Part shown: piece by piece, positions 3,794 through 49,012 of the stretch
Layout: every line of letters begins with the position of its first letter
How positions within the stretch are numbered: position 1 is the first letter of the stretch
Notes under the pieces: generated by a model
The model's database searches: none
Told to the model about the DNA's origin: nothing
Seen by the model: only the letters and a program-made list of their open reading frames with translations
Origin: Acidimicrobiales bacterium
GTDB lineage: Bacteria > Actinomycetota > Acidimicrobiia > Acidimicrobiales > DATDAH01
NCBI GenBank assembly: GCA_041918615.1
Contig: JAYRVH010000013.1
Location: forward strand, 190 to 64,189
Length of the DNA stretch: 64,000 nt
Direction of reading: 5' to 3'
Made by a program: the position numbers and the translations under genes

Positions 3794-4602
3794 GGCTCGG
3801 ACCCCCGGCGGACGTCGGGCAGCGGGAGGCGGGCCTCGCTCTCGGACCGGAACGGCTCGGCCCAGGCGTTGAAGGTCCGGAGCAGGCGCCCGATGTCGGC
3901 GTCGCTCGTGCCGAGCGCGCCGAGCGTGGGAGTGAGGGCCGCGGGTGCGGCCGACTCCATCGGCCCGAAGCAGCCGTAGCACCCGCGCTGGTAGCGGGGG
4001 CACAGCGCTCCGCACCCGGCGTGGGTGATCGGCCCCAGGCACGGCACGCCGCCGGCGACCAGCACGCACACGTTGCCCGCGGCCTTGCACTCGACACACA
4101 CGCTCTGAGCGCTCACCGCAGGGCGTCGGCCGTGCAGGAACGCACCGATCACCTCCAACAGCTGCGCCCCGTCGATCGGGCAGCCCCGCAACTCGAAGTC
4201 GACCGGCACGTGGGCCGAGATCGGCGTCGACGTGTCGAGCGTCGAGATGAACGCGGGCGTGGGGTACACGATGGCGAGGAACTCCTCGACATCGCCGAAG
4301 TTCCGCAGGGCCTGGATGCCCCCGGCGGTGGCGCAGGCACCGATGGTCACGAGGCGGCGAGAAGCGGCGCGGACCTGTTGGATCCGCTCGACGTCGACAG
4401 CCGTGGTGACCGACCCCTCGACCAGTGACACGTCGTAGGGGCCGTCCACGGTGGCGCTCGACGCCTCGAGGAAGTAGCCGATCTCGACCTCGCCGGCCAC
4501 GGCCAGCAGCTCGTCCTCACAGTCGAGAAGGGTGAGCTGGCACCCGTCACAGGACGAGAACTTCCAGACGGCGAGTCGCGGGAGCGATCGGGCCCCGGTC
4601 AT
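3790..4602 (-). CDS. hyhS: [NiFe]-hydrogenase small (delta) subunit, group 3b-like
   Basis: [27 protein letters not shown]..., GACATAGG, and C-terminal Cys clusters ([26 protein letters not shown]). ATG at 4602 overlaps the hyhG stop (ATGA). Confidence 0.9.
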
Positions 4603-5453
4603 CGCGCGCTCGTCCGGAGCAGCGGTGCCGCGTTCTCGTGGTCGAACACGGGCCCGTCGAGGCACACGAAGCTGCCGCCCAGCTGGCAGTGCCCGCAATG
4701 GCCGACGGCGCACTTCATGTTGCGTTCGAGCGACACCTGCACGGACCGGGGATGCACGCCGAGGCCGATGAGCGCCTGGGCGGTGAATCGCATCATCACC
4801 TCGGGCCCGCACACGAGGGCGACGGCCTCACCCGGCTCCATGTCCACCCGGTCGAGCACCTCGGTCACCACCCCCACCGCCCCCTGCCATGAGCGGTCGG
4901 CGTGATCGACGGTGGCCACCACCTGCACGTGAGGGCGTCGGCCCCACTCGGCGAGCTCGTCCTGGAAGAGCAGGTCGCCCGGGGTCCGCGCACCGACGAC
5001 GATGGCCACCCGCCGGAAGCGGTCGGGGTCGGCGAGCGCCTCGAGCACAGCCGGCCGGAGGGGCACGAGGCCCACGCCCCCGGCGACGAACAGCAGGTCG
5101 CCACCCCCGGCGCCCGCCAGGTCCCAGGCGGTGCCGAACGGGCCGCGGACACCGACCACGCCGTCGACCGGCGTGGCGACGAGTGCCTCGGTGACGGCGC
5201 CGACCGCGCGGATGGTCTCTTCGATCGTCCCGTCGGCGGCATGCATGCCGAGCGAGATCGGCACCTCGCCGACCCCGAACGCCCAGAGCATGAAGAACTG
5301 GCCCGGCCTGGCCTCCGGCAGGGCCGCGTCGACCGGCGCGAGGGTCAACGTGACCGTGTCGGCGCCGTCCTGGCGACGACCCACGACACGGTAGCGGTGC
5401 GGGAGCATGGGTTCTGGGGCCGTGCCGACCGGGAGCAGCGGGGCGTCAAGCAT
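4599..5453 (-). CDS. hyhG: hydrogenase gamma subunit: FAD/NAD(P)-binding oxidoreductase with 2Fe-2S site
   Basis: PyrK / sulfite-reductase-like fold motifs ([29 protein letters not shown]) and C-terminal [14 protein letters not shown]. Start ATG 5453; ATG 5408 is also possible. Confidence 0.85.
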
Positions 5454-5904
5454 GCCCGTAGACGTCCAGGAGTCGCAGGCGGGTGGCTTGGAGTCGGCGC
5501 ACCAGCAGGCCCGCGAAGCGCTGCACGAGCCGGTACCCGAGGGCGGGATCGTCGTCGCACTTCGCGCGCAGGCACGCTGCGTCGAGTGCCACCGCGGCGG
5601 TGTCTTCCAGGGCGATCGCCTCGAACTGCCACCGGTGCGGCGGGAACAGCCAGGACGCCCCCAGCACCTCGCCCGCTCCCAGCATGGTGACCACGAACGG
5701 CGGCTTGCCGACGACCTCCATCTCGAGGGCCACCCTCCCCTGGCGGAGCACGTAGAAGTGATCGGCCGGCTCACCCTCACGGAAGATCGTCTCGCCCGCC
5801 GAGAACCGCATGTTCACCCCGCAACCGGCGAGAAGGTCGAGGTCGGGATCGGGCAGGTCTCCGAAGAACGGGTGCTCCTGCAACAGGTCGCGGATGCCCT
5901 TCAA
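5446..5904 (-). CDS. stand-alone cyclic-nucleotide-binding-domain protein (152 aa, no HTH)
   Basis: TTG start at 5904 overlaps the hyhB TGA (TTGA). Sequence [17 protein letters not shown]...[20 protein letters not shown]...[10 protein letters not shown] is a typical cNMP/CRP-type beta-barrel. It ends 8 nt inside hyhG. Confidence 0.75.
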
Positions 5905-7085
5905 GACGACTCCTCTCCTGAGCCCACTGGGCTCCCGTGTCGGGCCGGCCCGCGTCGGCGCACCGAACCGTCGGTCGCGGCGATGGCCGCCACCTCCTCG
6001 GTGAGGTCGATGCCGACCGGGCACCAGGTGATGCAGCGGCCGCACCCGACGCAACCGAGCTCGCCGAACTGATCGGCCCAGGTGGAAAGCTTGTGGGTGA
6101 GCCATTGGCGGTAGCGGGACCGGACGGTCGACCGAACGGGCCCTCCGTGCAGATAGCTGAAGTCGAGCGTGAAGCAGGAGTCCCACCGCTGCCACCGCTC
6201 GGCCACGGCTCCCGTGACGTCGGTGGTGTCCTCGACGGTCCCGCAGAAGCAGGTGGGGCAGACCATCGTGCAGTTGGTGCAGGCGAGGCACCGCGTGGCG
6301 AGGTCGTCCCACCGGGGGTGCTCGAGGTTGCGGGCCAGCAGCGCCGCCACCTCGGCGGCAGGGACATGCCGTCGCTGACCCGCGACCGCCATGGCCGTCG
6401 CATCGGCTGCGGCGTCCTGGTCGGCCCGGGTGGCGGGCTGATGCGGGACCGCGGCGAGGACGGCCGCTCCCTGCTCGCTGCCCACCCGAACACCGAAACG
6501 ATGCTCGCCGCCGTCGAGCAGTTCGACGAGCGCGAGGTCGAACCCGTCGGCCGCGGCGGGGCCGGCGCCCATCGAGTCGCAGAAGCACGTCGGTCCTGCC
6601 TCACCACAGTCCACGGCGACGATGAAGGCGTCGGCCCGCCGGGTTGCGTAGCCCGGGTCGGCGACGGCCCCGTCACGCAGCACCCGGTCCTGGACCGCGA
6701 TGCCACGCAGGTCGCAGGACCGGACGCCGATGAACGCGTTTCGGACCGGGGCCTCGACCGCGTCGTCGATCTCGAAGCCTCCGCCGCCTCGCCTCGCCCG
6801 GAAGACGAGTGATCTGGCGGGGTGCAGAAAGGGCTTCCACGAGGTCGCCGGCGTCGTGAACCCGAACAGCGCGGCGTCTTCCCGGCGCCGCAACCGGTAG
6901 CGCCCCGGGGCCTGCTCGTCACCCCAGCCCGCGGGGAGGTCGGCCACGCCGTCGATCTCGTCGAGCACGACGGCACCGTCGCGTACCGTCGGCCCGATCA
7001 GGGTGCGGCCGTCGCCACGGAGGGCGTCGAGCAGCGCCGCCAGCCCCGCCACGGTGAGTATGCCGTCCATCACGGACGCCAGCAT
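5901..7085 (-). CDS. hyhB: hydrogenase beta subunit: 4Fe-4S dicluster protein
   Basis: [16 protein letters not shown] and [15 protein letters not shown] ferredoxin-type motifs. 394 aa, first gene of the operon. Confidence 0.85.
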
Positions 7086-7183: not shown

Positions 7184-7894
7184 GTGCCCGTCATCGAGTT
7201 GGAAGCCGTTGGTCGCCACTACCAGGTCGGTGACAGCCGGGTGACCGCCCTCCGCGACGTGAGCCTGCGGGTCGACCAGGGCGAATTCCTGGTGGTGCTC
7301 GGCCCCTCGGGCTGCGGCAAGACCACGTTGTTGAACCTCATCGGGGCCCTCGACACCCCGAGCGAGGGCGACGTCCGAGTGGCCGGCGCCCGGCTCGCGG
7401 GAGCCAGCCGGAGGGACCTCTTCCGGTTCAGGCGGGAGACGGTGAGCTTCGTCTTCCAGACCTTCAACCTCTTCCCGGCGCTCACGGCCCGCGAGAACGT
7501 CCAGTTCGCCATCGACGTCGCCCGCGGGGCCCGGCCCGGCCCATCGGCTGCCGATGTGCTCGGTCGGGTGGGCCTGGGCGACCGTCTCGACCACTTCAGC
7601 CACCAGCTCTCGGGCGGCGAGCAGCAGCGGGTGGCCATCGCCCGGGCGCTGGCCACGGGGAACCCGGTGCTGTTGGCCGACGAGCCCACCGGCGAGCTCG
7701 ACTTCCGCACCGGCGTCGCCATCCTCGAGTTGCTCCACGAGCAGGCCCACGCCGGCGTGACCGTGGTCATCGTCACCCACAACCGCGAGATCAGCCGCGT
7801 GGCCGACCGGGTCATCGAGCTCTCCAGCGGTTCCGTCGTGGGCGATGGGCCCCCACCGGGGGGCACCGCCGAGATCGCGACCCTCCACTGGTGA
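7184..7894 (+). CDS. ABC transporter ATP-binding protein (MacB/LolD/FtsE-like)
   Basis: Walker A GPSGCGKTT, signature LSGGEQQRV, Walker B LLADEPTGELD. GTG start preceded by AGGAG. Confidence 0.9.
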   Translation: MPVIELEAVGRHYQVGDSRVTALRDVSLRVDQGEFLVVLGPSGCGKTTLLNLIGALDTPSEGDVRVAGARLAGASRRDLFRFRRETVSFVFQTFNLFPALTARENVQFAIDVARGARPGPSAADVLGRVGLGDRLDHFSHQLSGGEQQRVAIARALATGNPVLLADEPTGELDFRTGVAILELLHEQAHAGVTVVIVTHNREISRVADRVIELSSGSVVGDGPPPGGTAEIATLHW

Positions 7895-7919
7895 CCGCCG
7901 ACCTGGCGACGGTGAGACG

Positions 7920-10358
7920 GTGAGCACGGCCCTGCTCTGGCTGCGTTGGTCGTGGCGCGACCTGCGGGCGCGTTGGCTCCAGGTCGCGGCCATCGCCCTG
8001 ATCATCGCCATCGGGTCGGGCACGTACTCGGGGCTCACGAGCGTGTCGGCCTGGCGGCGGACGTCCTACGACGCGAGTTACGACGCCCTCGACATGTACG
8101 ACCTGCGGGTCGACCTGACCACCGGCAGCTACGCCGACACCGCGGCCCTCGTCGACGCCGCCCGTTCGATCCCCCGGGCGCGCGACATCGACCACGTCGA
8201 GGCGCGGCTGCAGGAACCGACCCAGGTGGACGCGTCGACGCCGGACGACCTGGTCCTCGTGCCGGGCCGCCTGGTGGGCGTGGACCTCACCGACGAGGGG
8301 CCACACGTGAGCGGGATCGACACCGTGACCGGGCGCGGCCTGCGGCCCGCGGATGCCGGCCGGAACGTGGTGGTGCTCGACGAGCACGTCGCCAAGCGCC
8401 ACGACCTGGCCGATCGCGGCACGATCCGACTCAGTGGCGACCGCAGGCTCCGCTACGTGGGACGGGGGCTCTCGCCCGAGAGCTTCTTCCCGGTGGACAA
8501 CCGCGGGAGCGTCTTCGCCGACTTCGCCGTCGTCTACACGTCGATCGAGACGGTCCAGCGGCTGACCGGCCACCCGGGGCAGGCCAACGGGCTGGTGCTC
8601 ACCGTCCGCTCCGGCGCCGACGTCGATCGAGTCGAGCGCCAGCTGACCGAGGCGCTCACGGCCGCCCTGGGCGACACCGGGGTGACCATCACCCGCCAGG
8701 AGGACGACCTGGTGCTCCGTCTGCTCTACGACGACATCGAGGGCGACCAGCGCTTCTACAACATCTTCGCCCTCCTCATCCTCGCCGGCGCCACCTTCGC
8801 CGCGTTCAACCTCACCGTCCGCATCGTGGAGGCCCAACGACGCGAGATCGGCATCGGCATGGCCCTCGGCGTCCCGCCGGGCAAGATAGCCGTCCGCCCC
8901 CTGCTGGTCGGGGGCCAGGTGGCCCTCCTCGGTGTCGTGTTCGGCGTGGGCGTGGGGCTGGTGATCGACGCGTTCATGGCCGATCTCCTCAGGGGCTTCT
9001 TCCCGCTGCCCATCTGGGAGTTCGCCTTCCAGCCACGCATCTTCGCCCGGGGTGCGGCACTCGGCCTGCTGCTCCCGCTGGTGGCCACCGCCGTTCCCGT
9101 CTGGCGGGCGGTCCGGGTCGCCCCGGTCGAGGCGATCAGCACCACCCATCGGGCCGCCGGGGGCGGTCTGGCCCCCTTGCTCCGGCGTGTGCCGCTCCCC
9201 GGTTCCAGCATCGGCCAGATGCCGTTCCGCAACGTGTTGCGCGAGCCTCGTCGGACCCTGCTGACCGCGCTGGGGATCGCGGCGGCCATCTGCACGCTCG
9301 TCGGCGTGATCGGCATGATCGACTCGTTCCTCGCCACCGTCGACGCCGGTGACAGCGAGATCGTCGGGGCCACGCCCGACCGGCTGACCCTCGACCTCGA
9401 GGGATTCGCCCTGAGCTCCTCCGAGGAGACGCAGTCGATCATCACCTCGCCCCTCCTCCGAGCGGCGGAGCCCGGGCTCACGCTGGGCGGGACGCTCGAG
9501 CCCGGCACCGAGGACGAGATCGACGTCCTGCTCTCGGCCGTCGACCTGCACAGCGACCTGTGGACACCCACGGCCACCGATGGACGGCTCCGCACCGACG
9601 AGCCTGGCCTCGTGGTGTCCCGAAAGGCGGCTGACGACCTCGGCGTGGGGGTCGGCGACACGGTGGTGCTGCGCCATCCACTGCGGGACGGGATCAGCTA
9701 CCGCCTCGTCGAGACCGAGCTGCCGGTCATCGCAATCCACCCCAACCCGTACCGGTTCATCACCTACATCGACATCCGCTGGGCCTCGCTGTTCGACCTG
9801 GAGGGCATCGCGAACACCATCAGGGTCGCACCGGCCGAGGGCACCAGCGTCGAGGACGTCCAGCGCGCCTTCTTCGGCCGGCCCGGGGTCGCGTCCGTCC
9901 AGCCCGTTTCCGAACTGGCCGACGGGGTCCGCGACCAGATCGACGAGGTGCTCGGCATCTTCGACGTGATCCAGGGTGCGGTCCTGCTCATGGCCCTGCT
10001 CATCGCCTTCAACTCGACCTCGATCAACATGGACGAGCGGGCGCGGGAGAATGCCACCCTGTTCGCGTTCGGGCTTCCCGTGCACCGGGCGGTGATCGTG
10101 GCGGTGACCGAGAGCGTGGTGATCGGCCTCATCGGCACGTTGGGGGGCGTGCTCGCCGGTCGGCTGCTCCTCGAATGGCTGATCCGCGTGATCGTGCCCG
10201 ACTCGCTGCCCGACATCGGGGTCGAGGTGTTCCTCTCGGGGCGGACGGTCGCCACCGCGGTCGTCCTCGGGGTGTTCGCCGTGGCCGTCGCCCCCCTTCT
10301 CACGGTGCGACGCCTGCGCCGGATGGACATCCCCTCGACGCTCCGGGTCATGGAATGA
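7920..10358 (+). CDS. ABC transporter permease with two FtsX-type modules (MacB-like)
   Basis: GTG at 7920 gives VSTALLWLRWSWRDLRARWLQVAAIALIIAIGSG... Two 4-TM FtsX-like blocks are separated by large extracytoplasmic regions. Starts 25 nt after the ATPase stop. Confidence 0.85.
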   Translation: MSTALLWLRWSWRDLRARWLQVAAIALIIAIGSGTYSGLTSVSAWRRTSYDASYDALDMYDLRVDLTTGSYADTAALVDAARSIPRARDIDHVEARLQEPTQVDASTPDDLVLVPGRLVGVDLTDEGPHVSGIDTVTGRGLRPADAGRNVVVLDEHVAKRHDLADRGTIRLSGDRRLRYVGRGLSPESFFPVDNRGSVFADFAVVYTSIETVQRLTGHPGQANGLVLTVRSGADVDRVERQLTEALTAALGDTGVTITRQEDDLVLRLLYDDIEGDQRFYNIFALLILAGATFAAFNLTVRIVEAQRREIGIGMALGVPPGKIAVRPLLVGGQVALLGVVFGVGVGLVIDAFMADLLRGFFPLPIWEFAFQPRIFARGAALGLLLPLVATAVPVWRAVRVAPVEAISTTHRAAGGGLAPLLRRVPLPGSSIGQMPFRNVLREPRRTLLTALGIAAAICTLVGVIGMIDSFLATVDAGDSEIVGATPDRLTLDLEGFALSSSEETQSIITSPLLRAAEPGLTLGGTLEPGTEDEIDVLLSAVDLHSDLWTPTATDGRLRTDEPGLVVSRKAADDLGVGVGDTVVLRHPLRDGISYRLVETELPVIAIHPNPYRFITYIDIRWASLFDLEGIANTIRVAPAEGTSVEDVQRAFFGRPGVASVQPVSELADGVRDQIDEVLGIFDVIQGAVLLMALLIAFNSTSINMDERARENATLFAFGLPVHRAVIVAVTESVVIGLIGTLGGVLAGRLLLEWLIRVIVPDSLPDIGVEVFLSGRTVATAVVLGVFAVAVAPLLTVRRLRRMDIPSTLRVME

Positions 10359-10420
10359 GCCCCGCGAGATAGGGTCGAAGGACCCGTGTCAGCCGCGCCC
10401 CAGAGTGTCACACTCGCCCC

Positions 10421-11830
10421 ATGACCGCTCCGATGCCGCCAGGCCCGCCATCGGGCCCACCGTCGTTCCCCCCGCCAGGGGGACCACCAGGAGGGCCGCC
10501 AGGACCCCCGCCGGGACCGCCTTCCGGGCCGAGTGGCCCACCAACGGGTGGCTACGGCTACGGCTACAGCGCCGCCGGTCCGCCTCCCCCGCCTGCTGGA
10601 GGCTCTCGGACCGGCCTGATCGTGGGAATCGCCATCGGGGTCGTGGTCCTGCTCATCGCCGTCACGGTCGGCGTGGTGCTGTTGACGAGCGACGAGGCCG
10701 AGGCGGGCGAGGTCTTCCTCGACCCCACCACCGAGGTCGGCCGTGACCCGTTCAGCGACAGCGTGGCCAACCCGAACGTGCGACCGATCTCGGGACAGAG
10801 CAACACCGGCACCTCGGCCGGCGGCCGGCTCGACATCACCAGTGCGCCAGGCTCCCAGCCCGGGCTGTATGGCGGCACCCAGAACCAGGCCCAGTGCGAC
10901 CGCCGACAGCTCATCGACTTCCTCCAGGCGAATCCGGCGAAGGGCCGCGCCTGGGCCGGCGTGCAGGGCATCAACCCCTCCCAGATCGAGGACTACATCC
11001 TCGGGCTCACGTCGATGCAGCTCCGGTCCGACACCCGGGTCACCAACCACGGCTTCCGCAACGGCCGGGCCACCGAGTACCAGACGGTGCTCCAGGCAGG
11101 CACCGCCGTCCTGGTCGACCGACAGGGCATCCCGCGCGCCCGGTGCGCGTGCGGCAACCCGCTCACCCCACCACGCGCCGTCCGCACCGCCCCCAGGTTC
11201 CGGGGCACGCGGTGGACCGGATTCACCCCGAGCAACCTCCAGGTCATCGTCGTCCAGACGACGATCAACATCTTCGTGATCATCGACATCGACACCGGCG
11301 ACCTGTTCACTCGACCGCCGGGGACCAACGGCAACGACGACGAGCCCTACGACGGCGGCGGACCGCCGACCACCACCCCGCCGATCACCACTCCCCCCGA
11401 CAGCTTCCCGCCCGACACCTTCCCGCCCGAGACGATCGCGCCGCCCGACGACCTCGGCGGCGCCAACGACGTGGACATCACGCTGAGCTGGTCCGGCAAC
11501 GACGACCTCGACCTCCACGTGATCGAGCCGAGCGGCGAGGAGCTCTCGTTCTCGTCCACCACCACCTCGACCGGTGGGACCCTGGTGGGCGGAGACGACA
11601 TCCCCTCCTGCGAGGACTCGGGCGGCCACTCCGAGAACGCCTACTGGGGCCCCGGCGCCGCGACGCCGGGCGAGTATCAGGTCTACGTCCGCAACTTCGG
11701 CGCCTGCGACGACGACGGCGCCTCCTTCTCGCTCGACATCTCGGTGAACGGTGAGTCGGTGGGCGGCGACAGCGGCACCCTGACGCCGGGGACCGACTCG
11801 GGGACCGTGACCGTCACGGTCCCCGACTGA
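10421..11830 (+). CDS. single-pass membrane protein: Pro/Gly-rich cytoplasmic tail, Cys-motif ectodomain (DUF6777-like), C-terminal YfaP/DUF2135-like domain
   Basis: N-terminal (GPP)-rich ~60 aa and TM segment LIVGIAIGVVVLLIAVTVGVVLL. Conserved block LYGGTQNQAQCD...RARCACGNPL. C-terminal block DLDLHVIEPSGEELSF...GEYQVYVRNFG. Domain names are from memory. Confidence 0.8.
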   Translation: MTAPMPPGPPSGPPSFPPPGGPPGGPPGPPPGPPSGPSGPPTGGYGYGYSAAGPPPPPAGGSRTGLIVGIAIGVVVLLIAVTVGVVLLTSDEAEAGEVFLDPTTEVGRDPFSDSVANPNVRPISGQSNTGTSAGGRLDITSAPGSQPGLYGGTQNQAQCDRRQLIDFLQANPAKGRAWAGVQGINPSQIEDYILGLTSMQLRSDTRVTNHGFRNGRATEYQTVLQAGTAVLVDRQGIPRARCACGNPLTPPRAVRTAPRFRGTRWTGFTPSNLQVIVVQTTINIFVIIDIDTGDLFTRPPGTNGNDDEPYDGGGPPTTTPPITTPPDSFPPDTFPPETIAPPDDLGGANDVDITLSWSGNDDLDLHVIEPSGEELSFSSTTTSTGGTLVGGDDIPSCEDSGGHSENAYWGPGAATPGEYQVYVRNFGACDDDGASFSLDISVNGESVGGDSGTLTPGTDSGTVTVTVPD

Positions 11831-11842
11831 GGCGGGGCGAAC

Positions 11843-13015
11843 ATGGCCGAGAAGACCGACACCCCCGCCGAATCGGTCGACTTGGCGCTGCCGGGGCTCG
11901 TCGGGGCCACACGCATCGCCGAGGGCCCGTTCACCGTCGTCTACCGGGCGACCCAACCGGCGTTCGGACGCCCGGTGGCGGTGACGGTGATCACCGCCGA
12001 CCTCGACGACGAGGCCCGCGCCCGCTTCGAGGAGGAGTGCCGGTCCGCGGGCACCCTGTCAGAGCATCCCGGCATCGTGTCGCTGCACGATGCCGGGATC
12101 GGCGACGACGGTCGGCCGTACCTGGTCATGTCCTTCCTCCCCGACGGCTCGCTGGCCGACCTCCTCGAGCGACGCGGCGCGTTCGGTTGGGAGGAAGCCG
12201 TGCGGATCGGCCTGCACCTCACCAACGCCCTCGCGGCCGCCCACCGATCGGGCGTCATCCACGGCGACCTGCGGCCGGGAACGGTGATGATGGCGGCCGA
12301 CGGCACGCCACTCCTCGCCGAGTTCGGGGTCGCCCGGGTGGTGGGCCACCAGGCCGTGCGAGCGGCTCGCACCTCGCGATCGGTCGTGGGCACCGCCCCC
12401 GAGGTCATCGACGGCGCCGCGCCCTCGGTGGCCGCCGACATCTACTCGATAGGCGCCATCGCCCATGAGCTGATCACGGGTCAGCCGCCGTACACGGTCG
12501 ACCAGTCGGATTCCCTCGAGAACGTCATCCGTCGCGTCACGAGTGAGCCACCGATCGACCTCCGCGCCACCGACACCCCCGACGACGTCGCCGCGCTCGT
12601 GGCCCGCACGATGTCGCGGAACCCGGCCGATCGCCCCGTCTCGGCGGCGACGCTCGGTCGCGACCTCCACGACCTGTGTCGAGCCCATCTCCTGGACCTG
12701 ACCGACGGCCGCCGATGGCCCGAGGCAGCGCCCACCCGCGTGGACGAGCCGCCGACCGCACCTGCGCCGGTCCTGGTGGCCGAGACCGCAGCACCGGCCG
12801 CACCCGCAGCGCCCTACGTCCCGACCCACCGTGTGCCGTGGACCGGCATGCCGGCGTGGTCGTCGTCGGATCCCGGCCCCCAACCGGTCGCCAACCTCGA
12901 CCCCGACCTCGACGTGGCGGTCCTCGAGTGGTCGGGCGACTGGGCACGGGTCCGGTGCTCCAACGACTGGGAGGCATGGGTCGACGGGCGCCAACTCGTT
13001 CCCGTGTGGCAGTGA
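11843..13015 (+). CDS. Ser/Thr-protein-kinase-fold protein with degenerate catalytic motifs (predicted pseudokinase) and C-terminal SH3-like domain
   Basis: The Hanks fold is recognisable (APE: GTAPEV; DIYSIGAI; NPADRP). However VAxK is VAVTV, HRDLKPxN is HGDLRPGT and DFG is EFG. The tail GDWARVRCSNDWEAWVDGRQLV resembles bacterial SH3. Confidence 0.85.
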   Translation: MAEKTDTPAESVDLALPGLVGATRIAEGPFTVVYRATQPAFGRPVAVTVITADLDDEARARFEEECRSAGTLSEHPGIVSLHDAGIGDDGRPYLVMSFLPDGSLADLLERRGAFGWEEAVRIGLHLTNALAAAHRSGVIHGDLRPGTVMMAADGTPLLAEFGVARVVGHQAVRAARTSRSVVGTAPEVIDGAAPSVAADIYSIGAIAHELITGQPPYTVDQSDSLENVIRRVTSEPPIDLRATDTPDDVAALVARTMSRNPADRPVSAATLGRDLHDLCRAHLLDLTDGRRWPEAAPTRVDEPPTAPAPVLVAETAAPAAPAAPYVPTHRVPWTGMPAWSSSDPGPQPVANLDPDLDVAVLEWSGDWARVRCSNDWEAWVDGRQLVPVWQ

Positions 13016-13059: not shown

Positions 13060-13851
13060 ATGATTTCCGACGTGCCTTCGGAAATCGTCGCTCCATCGCC
13101 ATCGCCGTCGACTGACCGACGAACACGCAAGCGCGACGCACGACGCGACCACCTCCTCGACTTGGCGCTCGAGCTGAGCGACCGGGCCGGCGTCGGCGGC
13201 GTGACGATGGCCGCCCTGGCCGAGGCCGCCGACTACGCGCCCGCATCGCTCTACACGTACTTCGCGTCACGCAGCGCCCTGCTGGCCGCCCTCCAACAGC
13301 GGGCGCTCACGACTCTCGGCGAAGTCACCGACGACGCGCTCGCGGCCTGGGAAGCCGCCCTCGAAGCCCGCACCGGACGAGAGGCACCTCCGGTTGCGGC
13401 ACTGGCCCGGCTCTGGGTGTTCTCCGACCTCTTCCTCGCCGCCCCACACCACCACCCACGTGAGTTCCGCCTCCAACAGCAACTGCTGGTCACCGCCAAC
13501 ACCCAGGAGGCCGCCGACGCGGCCACGGTCGTCCCGGCGGCCATGGGCGTGCTCGACCTGCCGAGACGGCTGCTCGCCGACGCCACCGCGCAGGGCGCGC
13601 TCGAGCCGCACCGACCCGCCGCCGACCCCATCGACCATCCCCTCGACGGCGACCTGCTCCGCACACTCGCCTGGGTGTCGGCACTCAATGGCGGGCTCCT
13701 CCTCGATGCACTCGGCACGGGCGTGCCCACCACGGGTGCCGACCTCGGTGCCGAGCTCACCGAATCGCTCCTCCTCGGTTGGGGTGCGGCACCGGACCAC
13801 CTCATCATGGCCCGCGGGCGCTCGCTCGGCTGGGTCGCCGAACACACCTGA
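13060..13851 (+). CDS. TetR/AcrR-family transcriptional regulator
   Basis: HTH region GVGGVTMAALAEAADYAPASLYTYFASRSALL. ATG 13060; a TTG at 13036 is also possible. Confidence 0.8.
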   Translation: MISDVPSEIVAPSPSPSTDRRTRKRDARRDHLLDLALELSDRAGVGGVTMAALAEAADYAPASLYTYFASRSALLAALQQRALTTLGEVTDDALAAWEAALEARTGREAPPVAALARLWVFSDLFLAAPHHHPREFRLQQQLLVTANTQEAADAATVVPAAMGVLDLPRRLLADATAQGALEPHRPAADPIDHPLDGDLLRTLAWVSALNGGLLLDALGTGVPTTGADLGAELTESLLLGWGAAPDHLIMARGRSLGWVAEHT

Positions 13852-13865
13852 CCCCGAAAGGACCC

Positions 13866-14498
13866 ATGCCCCTCTTCATCACGCTCCCGCTCGCCTTCGC
13901 CACCGGCTGGCTGCTGTGGACGCTCGGCGAGTACCTGCTGCACCGCTTCGCCATGCACCACCTGCACGGCAAGGGCATCATGAGCCGCGAGCACCTCGAG
14001 CACCACGTGCACTCGACGTGGAGCTTCTCGTACACCCACCTGTTGAGCTGGGCCGGCATGCTGCTCGTCGGTGCCGTGGTGTGGATGCCCCTGTTCTGGT
14101 GGCTGGCCACCCCGCTCGTCGGGGTCGCCGTGGCGACAGGCTGGGCCCTCGGCTACTTCTTCTACGAGTACCAGCACGCCATGGCGCACCTGCGCCCGCC
14201 GTCAGCCACCTACTCGCGGTGGGTCCGCACCCACCACTTCCACCACCACTTCGGCCACCCGATGGCCAACCACGGCGTCAGCGTGCCCTGGTGGGACCAC
14301 GCCTTCGGCACCTTCGAACAACCCGACCGGGTCCGGGTGCCCCGGCGCCTCGCCCTGCCCTGGATGGTGGACGGCCGAAACGAGCTCCGGGCCGAGTTCA
14401 CCGACGACTACGTCCTGGTGGGTCGAGCCACGACCGACGACCGCACGGCCGCACTCGATCGCGCCCGGGCGTTCGCCTCCACCGCCCCCGCCGACTGA
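13866..14498 (+). CDS. fatty acid hydroxylase / sterol desaturase-family membrane protein
   Basis: His boxes HRFAMHH, HLEHHVH and HHFHHHFGH, with TM segments. ATG 13866 (MPLFITLPLAF) lies 14 nt after the TetR stop. Confidence 0.8.
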   Translation: MPLFITLPLAFATGWLLWTLGEYLLHRFAMHHLHGKGIMSREHLEHHVHSTWSFSYTHLLSWAGMLLVGAVVWMPLFWWLATPLVGVAVATGWALGYFFYEYQHAMAHLRPPSATYSRWVRTHHFHHHFGHPMANHGVSVPWWDHAFGTFEQPDRVRVPRRLALPWMVDGRNELRAEFTDDYVLVGRATTDDRTAALDRARAFASTAPAD

Positions 14499-47749: not shown

Positions 47750-49012
47750 TCAGAAGTCGCCGGAGGTGTCCGGCGGGGCCTCGGTGGCTGGTGGGACGGT
47801 GTCACCCGGGATCGTGTCACCCGGGATCGTGTCACCAGGGATCGTGTCGCCCGGGATCGTGGTGTCGCCGCCGGGGATGGTGGTGCTGGTACTGCAGGCC
47901 GGGGCGCCCGTCAGGTCGGTGCCGTCGGTCACGCACGCGGTGGTCGTGGTGGTCGACGGGTCATCGGTGACGCCCATGCCGCCGCTCCCGGCTTCGACGG
48001 GTGCGAGGACGCCGGTCACGATGTCCACTGCGTCGAAGGTCTCGACGGGCTGGGCGGCCGGCTCGACCACCTGGAACGGGAAGATGCTTCCGACGAGGTC
48101 GTCGATGACCTGCCAGGGCGGCCTGGTGACGATGGGGTCGACCAGCACCGCACAGAAGATCGGCGGCAGGAATGGTGGGCAGTTGGGCGCGACCACCGGC
48201 GGGGGGGCCGTCGGCGGGACCGCCGTGGTGGAGGTCGTCGAGGTCGATGTCGTCGAGGTCGACGTGGACGTCGAAGAAGTCGAGGTGGACGTGGAGGTGG
48301 ACGTCGAGGTGGACGTCGAGGTGGACGTCGAGGTCGACGTCGAGGTCGACGTCGTCGTCGGCACCTGCACGCCCGGCGGCGGCCGGTAGGAGCTCGGCGG
48401 CAGGAGCGGGTTCCCGCAGGCGCACCGGGCGCGGGGCACGCCCTGGGCGTCGATCAGCACGGCCGTGCCCCGCTGGAGGAGCGCCAGGAAGGGGACGGCC
48501 TGGCCGTCCTGGTAACCGTGGTTGGTCACCAGGGTGTCCTGGGTCAGGAGCAGGGGCGTGAGGCCGTTGATGTAGTCGGGGATCTGGGCCGGGTCGATGC
48601 CCTGCACCTCGGCCCACGCGGCCCCCTTGTCGGTGTCCGAGGTGAGGAAGTCGATCAGCTGCTGCTTGTCGCACTGGGTCTGGTTCTCGGTGCCCCCGTA
48701 CAGGCCGACCGTGTCGCCGGCGACGGCCACGGGCTGGGCAACCGTTGCGGGCGCTGTGGTGGCGGGCTGGCCCCGCTTGTTGCCCGTCGTCGTGGCGGGC
48801 ACGCCGTTCTCCGCGAAGGACTCCACGGCATCACTGGGAAGGGTCGCCACCGAGTCGGTGAAGGGGGACGGCCCGTTGTCGCTGATGGACTGGGCCTCGA
48901 AGAAGGGGATCTCGGCGTTCTCGTCCCCGCCGCTGCTGCAGGCAGCCAGCGTGGCGACCAGCGTGAAGGCGAGGAAGACGATGGCAGATGTGCGGGCGAT
49001 GCTTGTGCGCAT
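47750..49012 (-). CDS. lipoprotein paralogue of the 10421 Cys-motif (DUF6777-like) protein, with (ST)n and TIPGD repeats
   Basis: Lipobox LAAC. LYGGTENQTQCDKQQLIDFL...RARCACGNPL is about two-thirds identical by eye to residues of the 10421 protein. Confidence 0.8.
   Translation of the reverse strand: MRTSIARTSAIVFLAFTLVATLAACSSGGDENAEIPFFEAQSISDNGPSPFTDSVATLPSDAVESFAENGVPATTTGNKRGQPATTAPATVAQPVAVAGDTVGLYGGTENQTQCDKQQLIDFLTSDTDKGAAWAEVQGIDPAQIPDYINGLTPLLLTQDTLVTNHGYQDGQAVPFLALLQRGTAVLIDAQGVPRARCACGNPLLPPSSYRPPPGVQVPTTTSTSTSTSTSTSTSTSTSTSTSTSTSSTSTSTSTTSTSTTSTTAVPPTAPPPVVAPNCPPFLPPIFCAVLVDPIVTRPPWQVIDDLVGSIFPFQVVEPAAQPVETFDAVDIVTGVLAPVEAGSGGMGVTDDPSTTTTTACVTDGTDLTGAPACSTSTTIPGGDTTIPGDTIPGDTIPGDTIPGDTVPPATEAPPDTSGDF
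47799..47880. repeat. 15-bp in-frame tandem repeat (gtgtcacccgggatc x4 plus a degenerate copy) encoding (TIPGD)n
   Basis: Units at 47799, 47814, 47829 and 47844 with single-base variants. Read directly. Confidence 0.85.
48226..48360. repeat. 6/12-bp microsatellite-like repeat (gtcgaggtggac-type) encoding a ~45-residue (Ser-Thr)n tract
   Basis: Read directly. The protein shows TTTSTSTSTSTSTS...STTSTSTTSTT. Confidence 0.85.

Follow-up and report, generated by a model that had tools for sequence, protein, structure and literature searches.

In a stretch of 64,000 nucleotides (nt) from an Acidimicrobiales bacterium of the Actinomycetota (GenBank assembly GCA_041918615.1, contig JAYRVH010000013.1, positions 190 to 64,189; called here the window, with a base composition of ~71% G+C), two consecutive genes of the plus strand probably encode a split signalling pair of the receptor-kinase type. 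The first gene (10421..11830) encodes a membrane protein of 469 amino acids (aa) which crosses the membrane once, with the N-terminus inside and the C-terminus outside, and which belongs to the Pfam family DUF6777 (PF20568, E 5.6e-62); the second (11843..13015) encodes a cytoplasmic, predicted Hanks-type pseudokinase of 390 aa ending in a probable bacterial SH3 (SH3b) domain, as judged from a Pkinase match (E 5.7e-31), an AlphaFold2 (AF2) model and alignments. The DUF6777-kinase pair is conserved in actinobacteria and is undescribed; receptor Ser/Thr kinase signalling is itself already known.

The DUF6777 protein would be the sensor half of the pair, exposing DUF6777 and a PPC-like β-sandwich to the outside, where an envelope cue may be sensed, and keeping a disordered Pro-rich tail inside; the kinase-like protein would be its cytoplasmic partner, whose ancestor would be an active Hanks-type Ser/Thr kinase with SH3b attached. 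Binding between the two proteins is supposed, with SH3b and the GPPSGP-type tail as plausible contacts, and in the lineage of the window, where catalysis appears to have been lost, the output would pass through scaffolding or through allosteric control of a partner. This reading draws on the domain anatomy of the two proteins, on the conservation of the pair, on fusions of the kinase with DUF6777 and on the decay of the kinase motifs.

Anatomy and conservation of the pair

The DUF6777 protein, all of whose parts are encoded on the plus strand, begins with a cytoplasmic tail rich in Pro and Gly (aa 1-63, 10421..10609; 43% Pro, predicted local distance difference test (pLDDT) <50), opening with the motif MPPGPPSGPPS; the tail is followed by a transmembrane helix (aa 64-89, 10610..10687; an AF2 helix at 64-89 and a hydropathy peak of 3.17 at aa 70-88), by the DUF6777 core with its motifs PRxxCxCGNPL and DTRVTNHG (aa 142-301, 10844..11323; delimited by Pfam, the alignment and AF2), and by a C-terminal β-sandwich of PPC/DUF2135-like type (DLDLHV...GEYQVYVRNFG, 11459..11827; all-β in the AF2 model, pLDDT ~95). 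The match to PF20568 extends over profile positions 3-163 of 163 and scores 208.7 bits, with a gathering cut-off of 27. A search with the window protein detected 2147 DUF6777 homologues; across 30 DUF6777 homologues that were aligned, C159, C242 and C244 are invariant and the DLDLHV domain is conserved. An earlier note on this DNA had described a single-pass protein with a polyproline N-terminus, a conserved Cys motif and a DLDLHV C-terminal domain, and the transmembrane prediction, Pfam and the alignment of the 30 homologues all agree with that description.

The DUF6777 core is modelled with confidence (pLDDT ~90 for aa 150-260), and Foldseek returned no PDB fold match for the model at E<1e-3; the fold was set aside as a functional lead, there being nothing at that threshold and no ligand inferable. 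The C-terminal β-sandwich has only a weak and generic Foldseek similarity to DUF4425, MmpS5 and PLAT; among the homologues of this domain, weak PPC matches are found in 13/30 (best E 0.0033) and a DUF2135 match in 1/30, the window domain itself matching only DUF2135, and weakly (E 0.22). The N-termini of DUF6777 proteins are modular, the same transmembrane helix and DUF6777 ectodomain being preceded by TIR, SHOCT, Zn-ribbons, a Hanks kinase or a Pro-rich tail (examples are P0100, P0120 and P0043/P0053/P0067, all homologues of the 10421-11830 protein). A second DUF6777 paralogue is encoded in the window at 47750-49012 on the minus strand and matches the Pfam model at E 1.4e-47 over profile positions 2-116 of 163; it has a short N-terminal tail without enrichment in Pro and no kinase or SH3b gene nearby, and its neighbours are an unknown open reading frame (ORF) of 292 aa, an amidohydrolase and a short-chain dehydrogenase/reductase.

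The loci used for comparison were collected by scanning a genome collection (80 loci), stop-to-stop ORFs being screened with the proteins of the window and of informative loci; look-ups of exact proteins added L081-L090, with DNA and Pfam-annotated genes, and the contig of P0138, represented by its gene table without DNA. The tandem order found in the window, DUF6777 followed by kinase fused to SH3b, recurs, the genes lying 15-45 nt apart, in L081/L084/L087, L085 and L086; the two genes are divergent in L002, in L089 and probably on the P0138 contig. The flanks of these loci are unrelated to those of the window, nor do L085 and L086 share theirs, the former having a transposase upstream of the pair and the latter an SLH protein and a restriction-modification system. 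L081/L084/L087, whose kinases carry HCD in place of HRD, are flanked by genes for Rpf-like Transglycosylas, Polysacc_deac_1 and YkuD L,D-transpeptidase proteins (L081 6989-8479 and 11167-11943); this cell-wall context was considered as a general clue and rejected, being absent from L085, L086 and the window. In L089 the kinase+SH3b gene (4821-6232, minus strand) is split over two reading frames, being either a frameshift pseudogene or the product of a long-read assembly error, and the public gene call retains only a 148-aa SH3_4 fragment.

In five loci (L011, L012, L016, L018 and L028) kinase, transmembrane helix and DUF6777 are joined in one ORF; in the fusion of L012, 780 aa long, the kinase motifs are canonical and the juxtamembrane linker is rich in Pro. 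From these fusions the kinase side is read as cytoplasmic and DUF6777 as outside, and the DUF6777 protein of the window is therefore placed with its N-terminus in and its C-terminus out. The conservation of the pair and the fusions together indicate that DUF6777 is probably an extracytoplasmic domain of a split receptor-kinase system. The earlier note had supposed a functional link between the membrane protein and the kinase/SH3 protein, and the recurrence of the pair amid unrelated flanks, with its fusion in five loci, bears this out.

The placement of SH3b also tracks the module. In Acidimicrobiales the domain is fused to the kinase; in L011, L012 and L016 the gene next to the fusion encodes an FHA-FHA-ABC-ABC2 protein (ABC, ATP-binding cassette), the architecture of Rv1747 of M. 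tuberculosis, and in L011/L012 a standalone SH3b gene of ~110 aa follows this FHA-ABC gene. In ~40 Streptomyces loci (e.g. L050 3880-10930) the string consists of FHA-FHA-ABC-ABC2, a 181-aa SH3b protein and, its start overlapping the stop of the SH3b gene, a soluble and active Ser/Thr kinase, and it continues with a conserved multi-transmembrane gene on the opposite strand, without Pfam family, and with a Pro-tailed DUF6777 gene. Nothing specific on this FHA-ABC/kinase string was found in the literature.

The closest known design is that of receptor kinases of the PknB-PASTA type, with which the fused relatives share a cytoplasmic kinase, a Pro-rich juxtamembrane linker, one transmembrane helix and an outside sensor, and the kinase domain of the window is structurally closest to PknB and PknA; it differs in that the sensor consists of DUF6777 and a PPC-like β-sandwich, the system is made of two polypeptides, SH3b is added and catalysis is lost in the clade. 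DUF6777 is not mentioned in the literature searched, in which nothing specific on a pseudokinase with SH3b was found either, in agreement with the earlier note, which knew of no described system of this composition. For DUF6777, with >2000 detected members in Actinomycetota, the pair would provide a first context, placing it on the outside of a receptor Ser/Thr kinase system.

Motif decay in the kinase-like protein

The kinase-fold domain occupies aa 20-283 of the second protein (11900..12691, plus strand), in which no transmembrane helix is predicted by hydropathy. Its fold is clear: the Pkinase match is joined by an AF2 model with pLDDT 86 and by Foldseek matches to PknB/PknA (E 1e-18, target TM-score 0.8-0.86). 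Its motifs, compared in an alignment of full-length orthologues with active reference kinases, are degenerate: active relatives have GxGGF, VAVK, HRDxKPxN and DFG, and the window protein has AEGPFT in the Gly-loop, VAVT in β3, HGDLRPGT in the catalytic loop and EFG for DFG, the individual changes being β3 Lys to Thr, Arg of HRD to Gly, and Lys to Arg and Asn to Thr in the catalytic loop. The motif set of an active Hanks-type kinase (Gly-loop, β3 Lys, HRD/Asn, DFG) is not present in it.

Across the relatives these states form a series. The canonical motifs (GxGGF, VAVK, HRDxKPxN, DFG) are kept in L002, L085, L086 and P0138; HCD replaces HRD in L081, L084, L087 and P0132-P0137; and in the clade of the window (P0122-P0131, L001, L082), to which the decayed motifs are restricted, the Gly-loop is lost, HRD has become HGD or HGE, the catalytic-loop Lys is Arg or His, Asn is Thr or Ala, and DFG is EFG, EFR or VFR. 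The change of the β3 Lys to Thr occurs in the window alone. Key catalytic residues had been reported as absent in the earlier note, and the alignments allow their loss to be traced from canonical kinases through the HCD form to the degenerate clade. Judged by its sequence, the kinase-like protein of the window appears to be a recently degenerated pseudokinase; since the catalytic residues are lost in the window lineage, any output would have to be non-catalytic, that is, scaffolding or allosteric control of a partner.

Enzymatic activity might also have been retained, in which case the protein would be an atypical kinase or a nucleotide-binding switch that works with non-canonical residues and phosphorylates the DUF6777 tail or some other substrate. 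The window protein does keep the catalytic-loop Asp (in HGD), the αC Glu and APE, and compensatory modes of ATP binding are known from atypical kinases (PMC12599244, PMC4718504), a precedent that tells against a purely non-catalytic output; against retained activity stand the joint loss of Gly-loop, β3 Lys, catalytic Asn and DFG Asp, all four together, and the sister sequence of L082, in which the catalytic Asp is missing as well (HGE). We regard retained activity as very unlikely.

An equally slender chance is given to the opposite extreme, that of a module which became non-functional after the loss of catalysis and is now drifting, its SH3b domain and tail having no current role. The progressive loss of motifs, with the additional Lys to Thr change in the window, would fit such a remnant, and so would the rate of change of the kinase-like gene, the fastest-evolving of the block (64% identity to L001 and L082, where the ATPase reaches 85-88% and the acyl-CoA dehydrogenase 83%). 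On the other side, full-length ORFs are intact in at least 11 clustered orthologues (62-71% identity), the kinase fold is confidently predicted, the SH3b end is ~82-87% identical across the clade, and the DUF6777 partner retains all of its invariant residues. The split receptor-kinase-type pair, with a partner that would act without catalysis, remains the preferred reading.

Bacterial pseudokinases are not new as such: a 2025 review (PMC12599244) describes the domain of MviN/MurJ (Rv3910) and the families ActPs1-3, GLW, CP1, DYD and DLHK. The window protein resembles them in its actinobacterial Hanks fold, its degenerate motifs and its envelope membrane protein partner, and appears to differ in having degenerated recently, within a family whose other members are active, and not to belong to an old pseudokinase family; the term 'SH3' does not occur in that review with any of the seven described families. 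The relatives of the pair offer a natural series (fused and active, split and active, split with a pseudokinase), from which one could learn how the parts of a bacterial receptor kinase come together and in what way signalling outlasts catalysis.

The SH3b domain and the Pro-rich tail

The SH3b-like domain at the end of the kinase-like protein (aa 327-388, 12821..13006, plus strand) was delimited from the AF2 β-strands, from its conservation in the loci and from the Pfam matches of its homologues; it contains a conserved tryptophan in a GDW motif. In the model these ~62 aa form five β-strands (336-340, 350-352, 357-364, 367-371 and 377-381) with pLDDT ~86-93, and SH3b domains taken from the loci match SH3_4 in 8/15 cases and SH3_3 in 4/15. 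By iterative search the domain is present in 42/80 DUF6777 loci, and an exhaustive phmmer search of 1.84e9 representative proteins found 1074 related proteins at E<0.001; among the best 148 representatives, SH3_4 is matched by 85/148 and SH3_3 by 68/148. The majority of these relatives consist of SH3b alone or in tandem, and Pkinase is absent from the 25 Pfam families which they most often match. The SH3-like end of the kinase-like protein is a conserved domain and probably a bacterial SH3 domain; what the earlier note had called SH3-like agrees with the five-stranded module and with the homologues matching SH3_4/SH3_3, and the window segment taken by itself matches no Pfam SH3 model up to E 10.

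Other routes to the domain were of little use. With the 67-aa SH3b segment as query, a word-indexed search for homologues gave one candidate only and was replaced by phmmer; Foldseek with the whole pseudokinase model, tried as a test of the SH3b fold, returned kinase matches only; and a profile search of the PDB with the SH3b alignment gave non-significant matches only, the best being Abl2 SH3 (E 0.26), with NlpC/P60 SH3b at E 4.

For the supposed docking of SH3b on the Pro-rich tail of its neighbour the evidence is circumstantial and consists of a short motif in an otherwise divergent, low-complexity sequence; the candidate SH3b-binding peptide of the tail is MPPGPPSGPPSFPP. The motif GPP[SQTA]GP, which was defined after the sequences had been seen and was counted in lineages that are related, occurs in 15/20 representative tails linked to SH3b, compared with 0.44 expected from composition-preserving shuffles, and in 4/28 unlinked tails, compared with 0.5 expected. 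It lies near the N-terminus in both Acidimicrobiales and Streptomyces, and its enrichment suggests a conserved short linear motif. The Pro content of the tail was rejected as a marker of SH3b linkage, its mean being 0.25 in linked and 0.21 in unlinked proteins.

Public gene calls for DUF6777 start internally in L081 (8431-8775), L084 (7746-8000), L085 (7737-8000) and L086 (7812-8000), omitting ~65-85 in-frame codons which correspond to the Pro-rich tail with its GPPSGP motif; the extended ORFs of L081 and L084-L086 open with M..PPxGPPSGP.., like the window protein. DUF6777 database entries are therefore often truncated at the N-terminus.

Several observations weigh against the pair and, in particular, against its docking element. 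Of the 49 DUF6777 clusters sampled (at 70% identity), roughly one in two lacks any kinase or SH3b gene within 10 kb, and linkage to a kinase is not obligatory in the family; tails rich in Pro are found family-wide, with or without a linked SH3b gene; the motif was chosen with the sequences in view; and the SH3b segment of the window escapes the Pfam SH3 models. To our knowledge, SH3b domains are not generally PxxP binders, and the ligands of the SH3_3/SH3_4 group are known mainly as cell-wall peptides. On balance, docking of SH3b on the tail may be entertained as a tentative proposal, somewhat less probable than its opposite; the pairing of the two proteins itself is favoured above it.

Adaptor signalling through SH3 domains and PxxP peptides is familiar from eukaryotes, and an intramolecular contact between an SH3-like domain and a Pro-peptide is known from proteins of the DtxR type. 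The window resembles the eukaryotic case in that an SH3-fold domain is encoded beside a polyproline-tailed protein, and differs from it in that the domain would belong to the bacterial SH3_3/SH3_4 group. If SH3b does bind the tail motif, bacterial transmembrane signalling would offer a clear example of wiring through an SH3-peptide adaptor. A more ambitious version, in which a bacterial counterpart of the eukaryotic SH3-polyproline adaptors would use GPPSGP to recruit the SH3b-(pseudo)kinase, and the sensor would control an ABC exporter (Rv1747-like in Streptomyces and some Acidimicrobiia; MacB-type and phosphorylation-independent in the window), appears decidedly improbable.

The MacB-type transporter and neighbouring genes

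Upstream of the pair, on the same strand, lie the two genes of an ABC transporter. The first (7184..7894) encodes an ATPase whose nucleotide-binding domain is MacB/FtsE/LolD/DevA-like (ABC_tran E 1.5e-33); its best NCBIfam matches are DevA (2e-63), MacB (6e-60) and FtsE (2e-57), followed by LolD, all of them under the equivalog cut-offs. The second (7920..10358) encodes a duplicated permease of the FtsX/MacB type, 812 aa long, with two FtsX (E 6e-21) and two MacB_PCD (E 1e-17) stretches in Pfam and, by hydropathy, ~8 predicted transmembrane helices and two extracytoplasmic domains of ~210-240 aa each. With a nucleotide-binding domain of the MacB/FtsE/LolD group and an FtsX and MacB-like core, the transporter is of the MacB/FtsX type (type VII), and the ATPase and double-FtsX permease with large extracytoplasmic loops announced in the earlier note agree with Pfam and with the predicted transmembrane pattern. 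All four ORFs described there on the plus strand, with their features, are present at 7184-13015; of the gaps between them, those of 62 and 12 nt stand as given, and that of 25 nt holds only with the GTG start of the permease at 7920, the alternative in-frame ATG at 7845 giving an overlap of 50 nt with the ATPase gene. No terminator-like site was found between the four genes by a sequence scan, promoter and terminator scanning of the window being uninformative in DNA of 71% G+C.

The full model of the earlier note was that of a four-gene envelope machine, in which the transporter is coupled to the pair and the SH3b-pseudokinase docks on the tail as a scaffold or as a regulator of the ABC ATPase. 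The common strand, the close spacing and the lack of a terminator-like site between the genes are in its favour, and so is the fact that adjacency to MacB coincides exactly with the degenerate-kinase clade. FtsX genes adjoin DUF6777 only in the window, L001 and L082/L083, and no FtsX gene is found within 8-10 kb of DUF6777 in ~85 other loci; the loci with an adjoining FtsX gene share synteny throughout the block, which begins with the Fer4_22/hydrogenase genes and reaches the acyl-CoA dehydrogenase, so that the MacB-DUF6777 adjacency represents one inherited evolutionary event. For the same reason the synteny of L001 and L082/L083 was rejected as proof of ABC coupling. With a single event, cause and coincidence of MacB adjacency and the pseudokinase clade cannot be told apart. 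The co-occurrence check which had been proposed for these genes therefore divides: a kinase+SH3b gene beside DUF6777 recurs in several lineages, and the FtsX permease is confined to one syntenic clade, which speaks against the proposed coupling of the transporter to the DUF6777 and pseudokinase proteins.

Comparison with known kinase-transporter systems gives the coupling some further support. In M. tuberculosis the kinase PknF positively regulates the transporter Rv1747 (PMC3138270), a Hanks kinase being encoded there with an FHA-containing ABC exporter (PMC3138270, PMC8339232); the theme of a kinase beside an exporter is shared, and the module of other lineages stands in an operon with an Rv1747-type exporter, L011, L012, L016 and the ~40 Streptomyces loci carrying FHA-FHA-ABC-ABC2 in the same gene string. 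The window differs in that its transporter is of the MacB/FtsX type, with a separate ATPase and without an FHA domain for kinase-type input (no FHA or ABC2_membrane match is found in the transporter, and no FHA match anywhere in the window), and in that its kinase is catalytically degenerate; the lack of an FHA domain counts against the coupling. DUF6777 and SH3b are unreported for PknF-Rv1747 in the two papers cited (PMC3138270, PMC8339232). The Streptomyces link to Rv1747-type exporters bears on the regulation of the PknF/Rv1747 class of transporters.

In Bce modules (BceAB-BceRS), too, an ABC transporter of the FtsX family signals to a kinase (PMC4513084, PMC10314905), and an FtsX-family permease beside a pair of signalling proteins recalls the window. 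BceB, by contrast, has one large extracellular domain and 10 transmembrane helices, and its partners are a histidine kinase and a response regulator; the window has a duplicated permease with 8 transmembrane helices and a Hanks pseudokinase as neighbour, in an adjacency that is not conserved, and no histidine kinase or response regulator for a Bce-type module is encoded between 5000 and 16000 of the window. Most probably the MacB-type transporter has been inherited beside the split pair without belonging to it. Its coupling to the pair is unlikely, and is retained as a minority alternative because the recurring link of the relatives to another class of ABC exporter recalls PknF-Rv1747; the four-gene machine as a whole is judged just as unlikely.

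The genes that surround the block follow the same synteny. A TetR-family regulator (13036/13060-13851, plus strand) begins 20-44 nt past the stop of the pseudokinase and is followed by a fatty-acid hydroxylase gene (13779-14498, plus strand); in L082 this block runs on into an RPE65 oxygenase and a thiolase. Kept in the same syntenic clade, the TetR/fatty-acid hydroxylase block is probably a separate unit. Divergent from the ABC genes, both in the window (4599-7085, minus strand) and in L082 (1-5280), lies a NiFe-hydrogenase/sulfhydrogenase-like cluster, whose members are a Fer4_22 protein, a cNMP (cyclic nucleotide)-binding protein, an NAD-binding subunit, Oxidored_q6 and NiFeSe_Hases.

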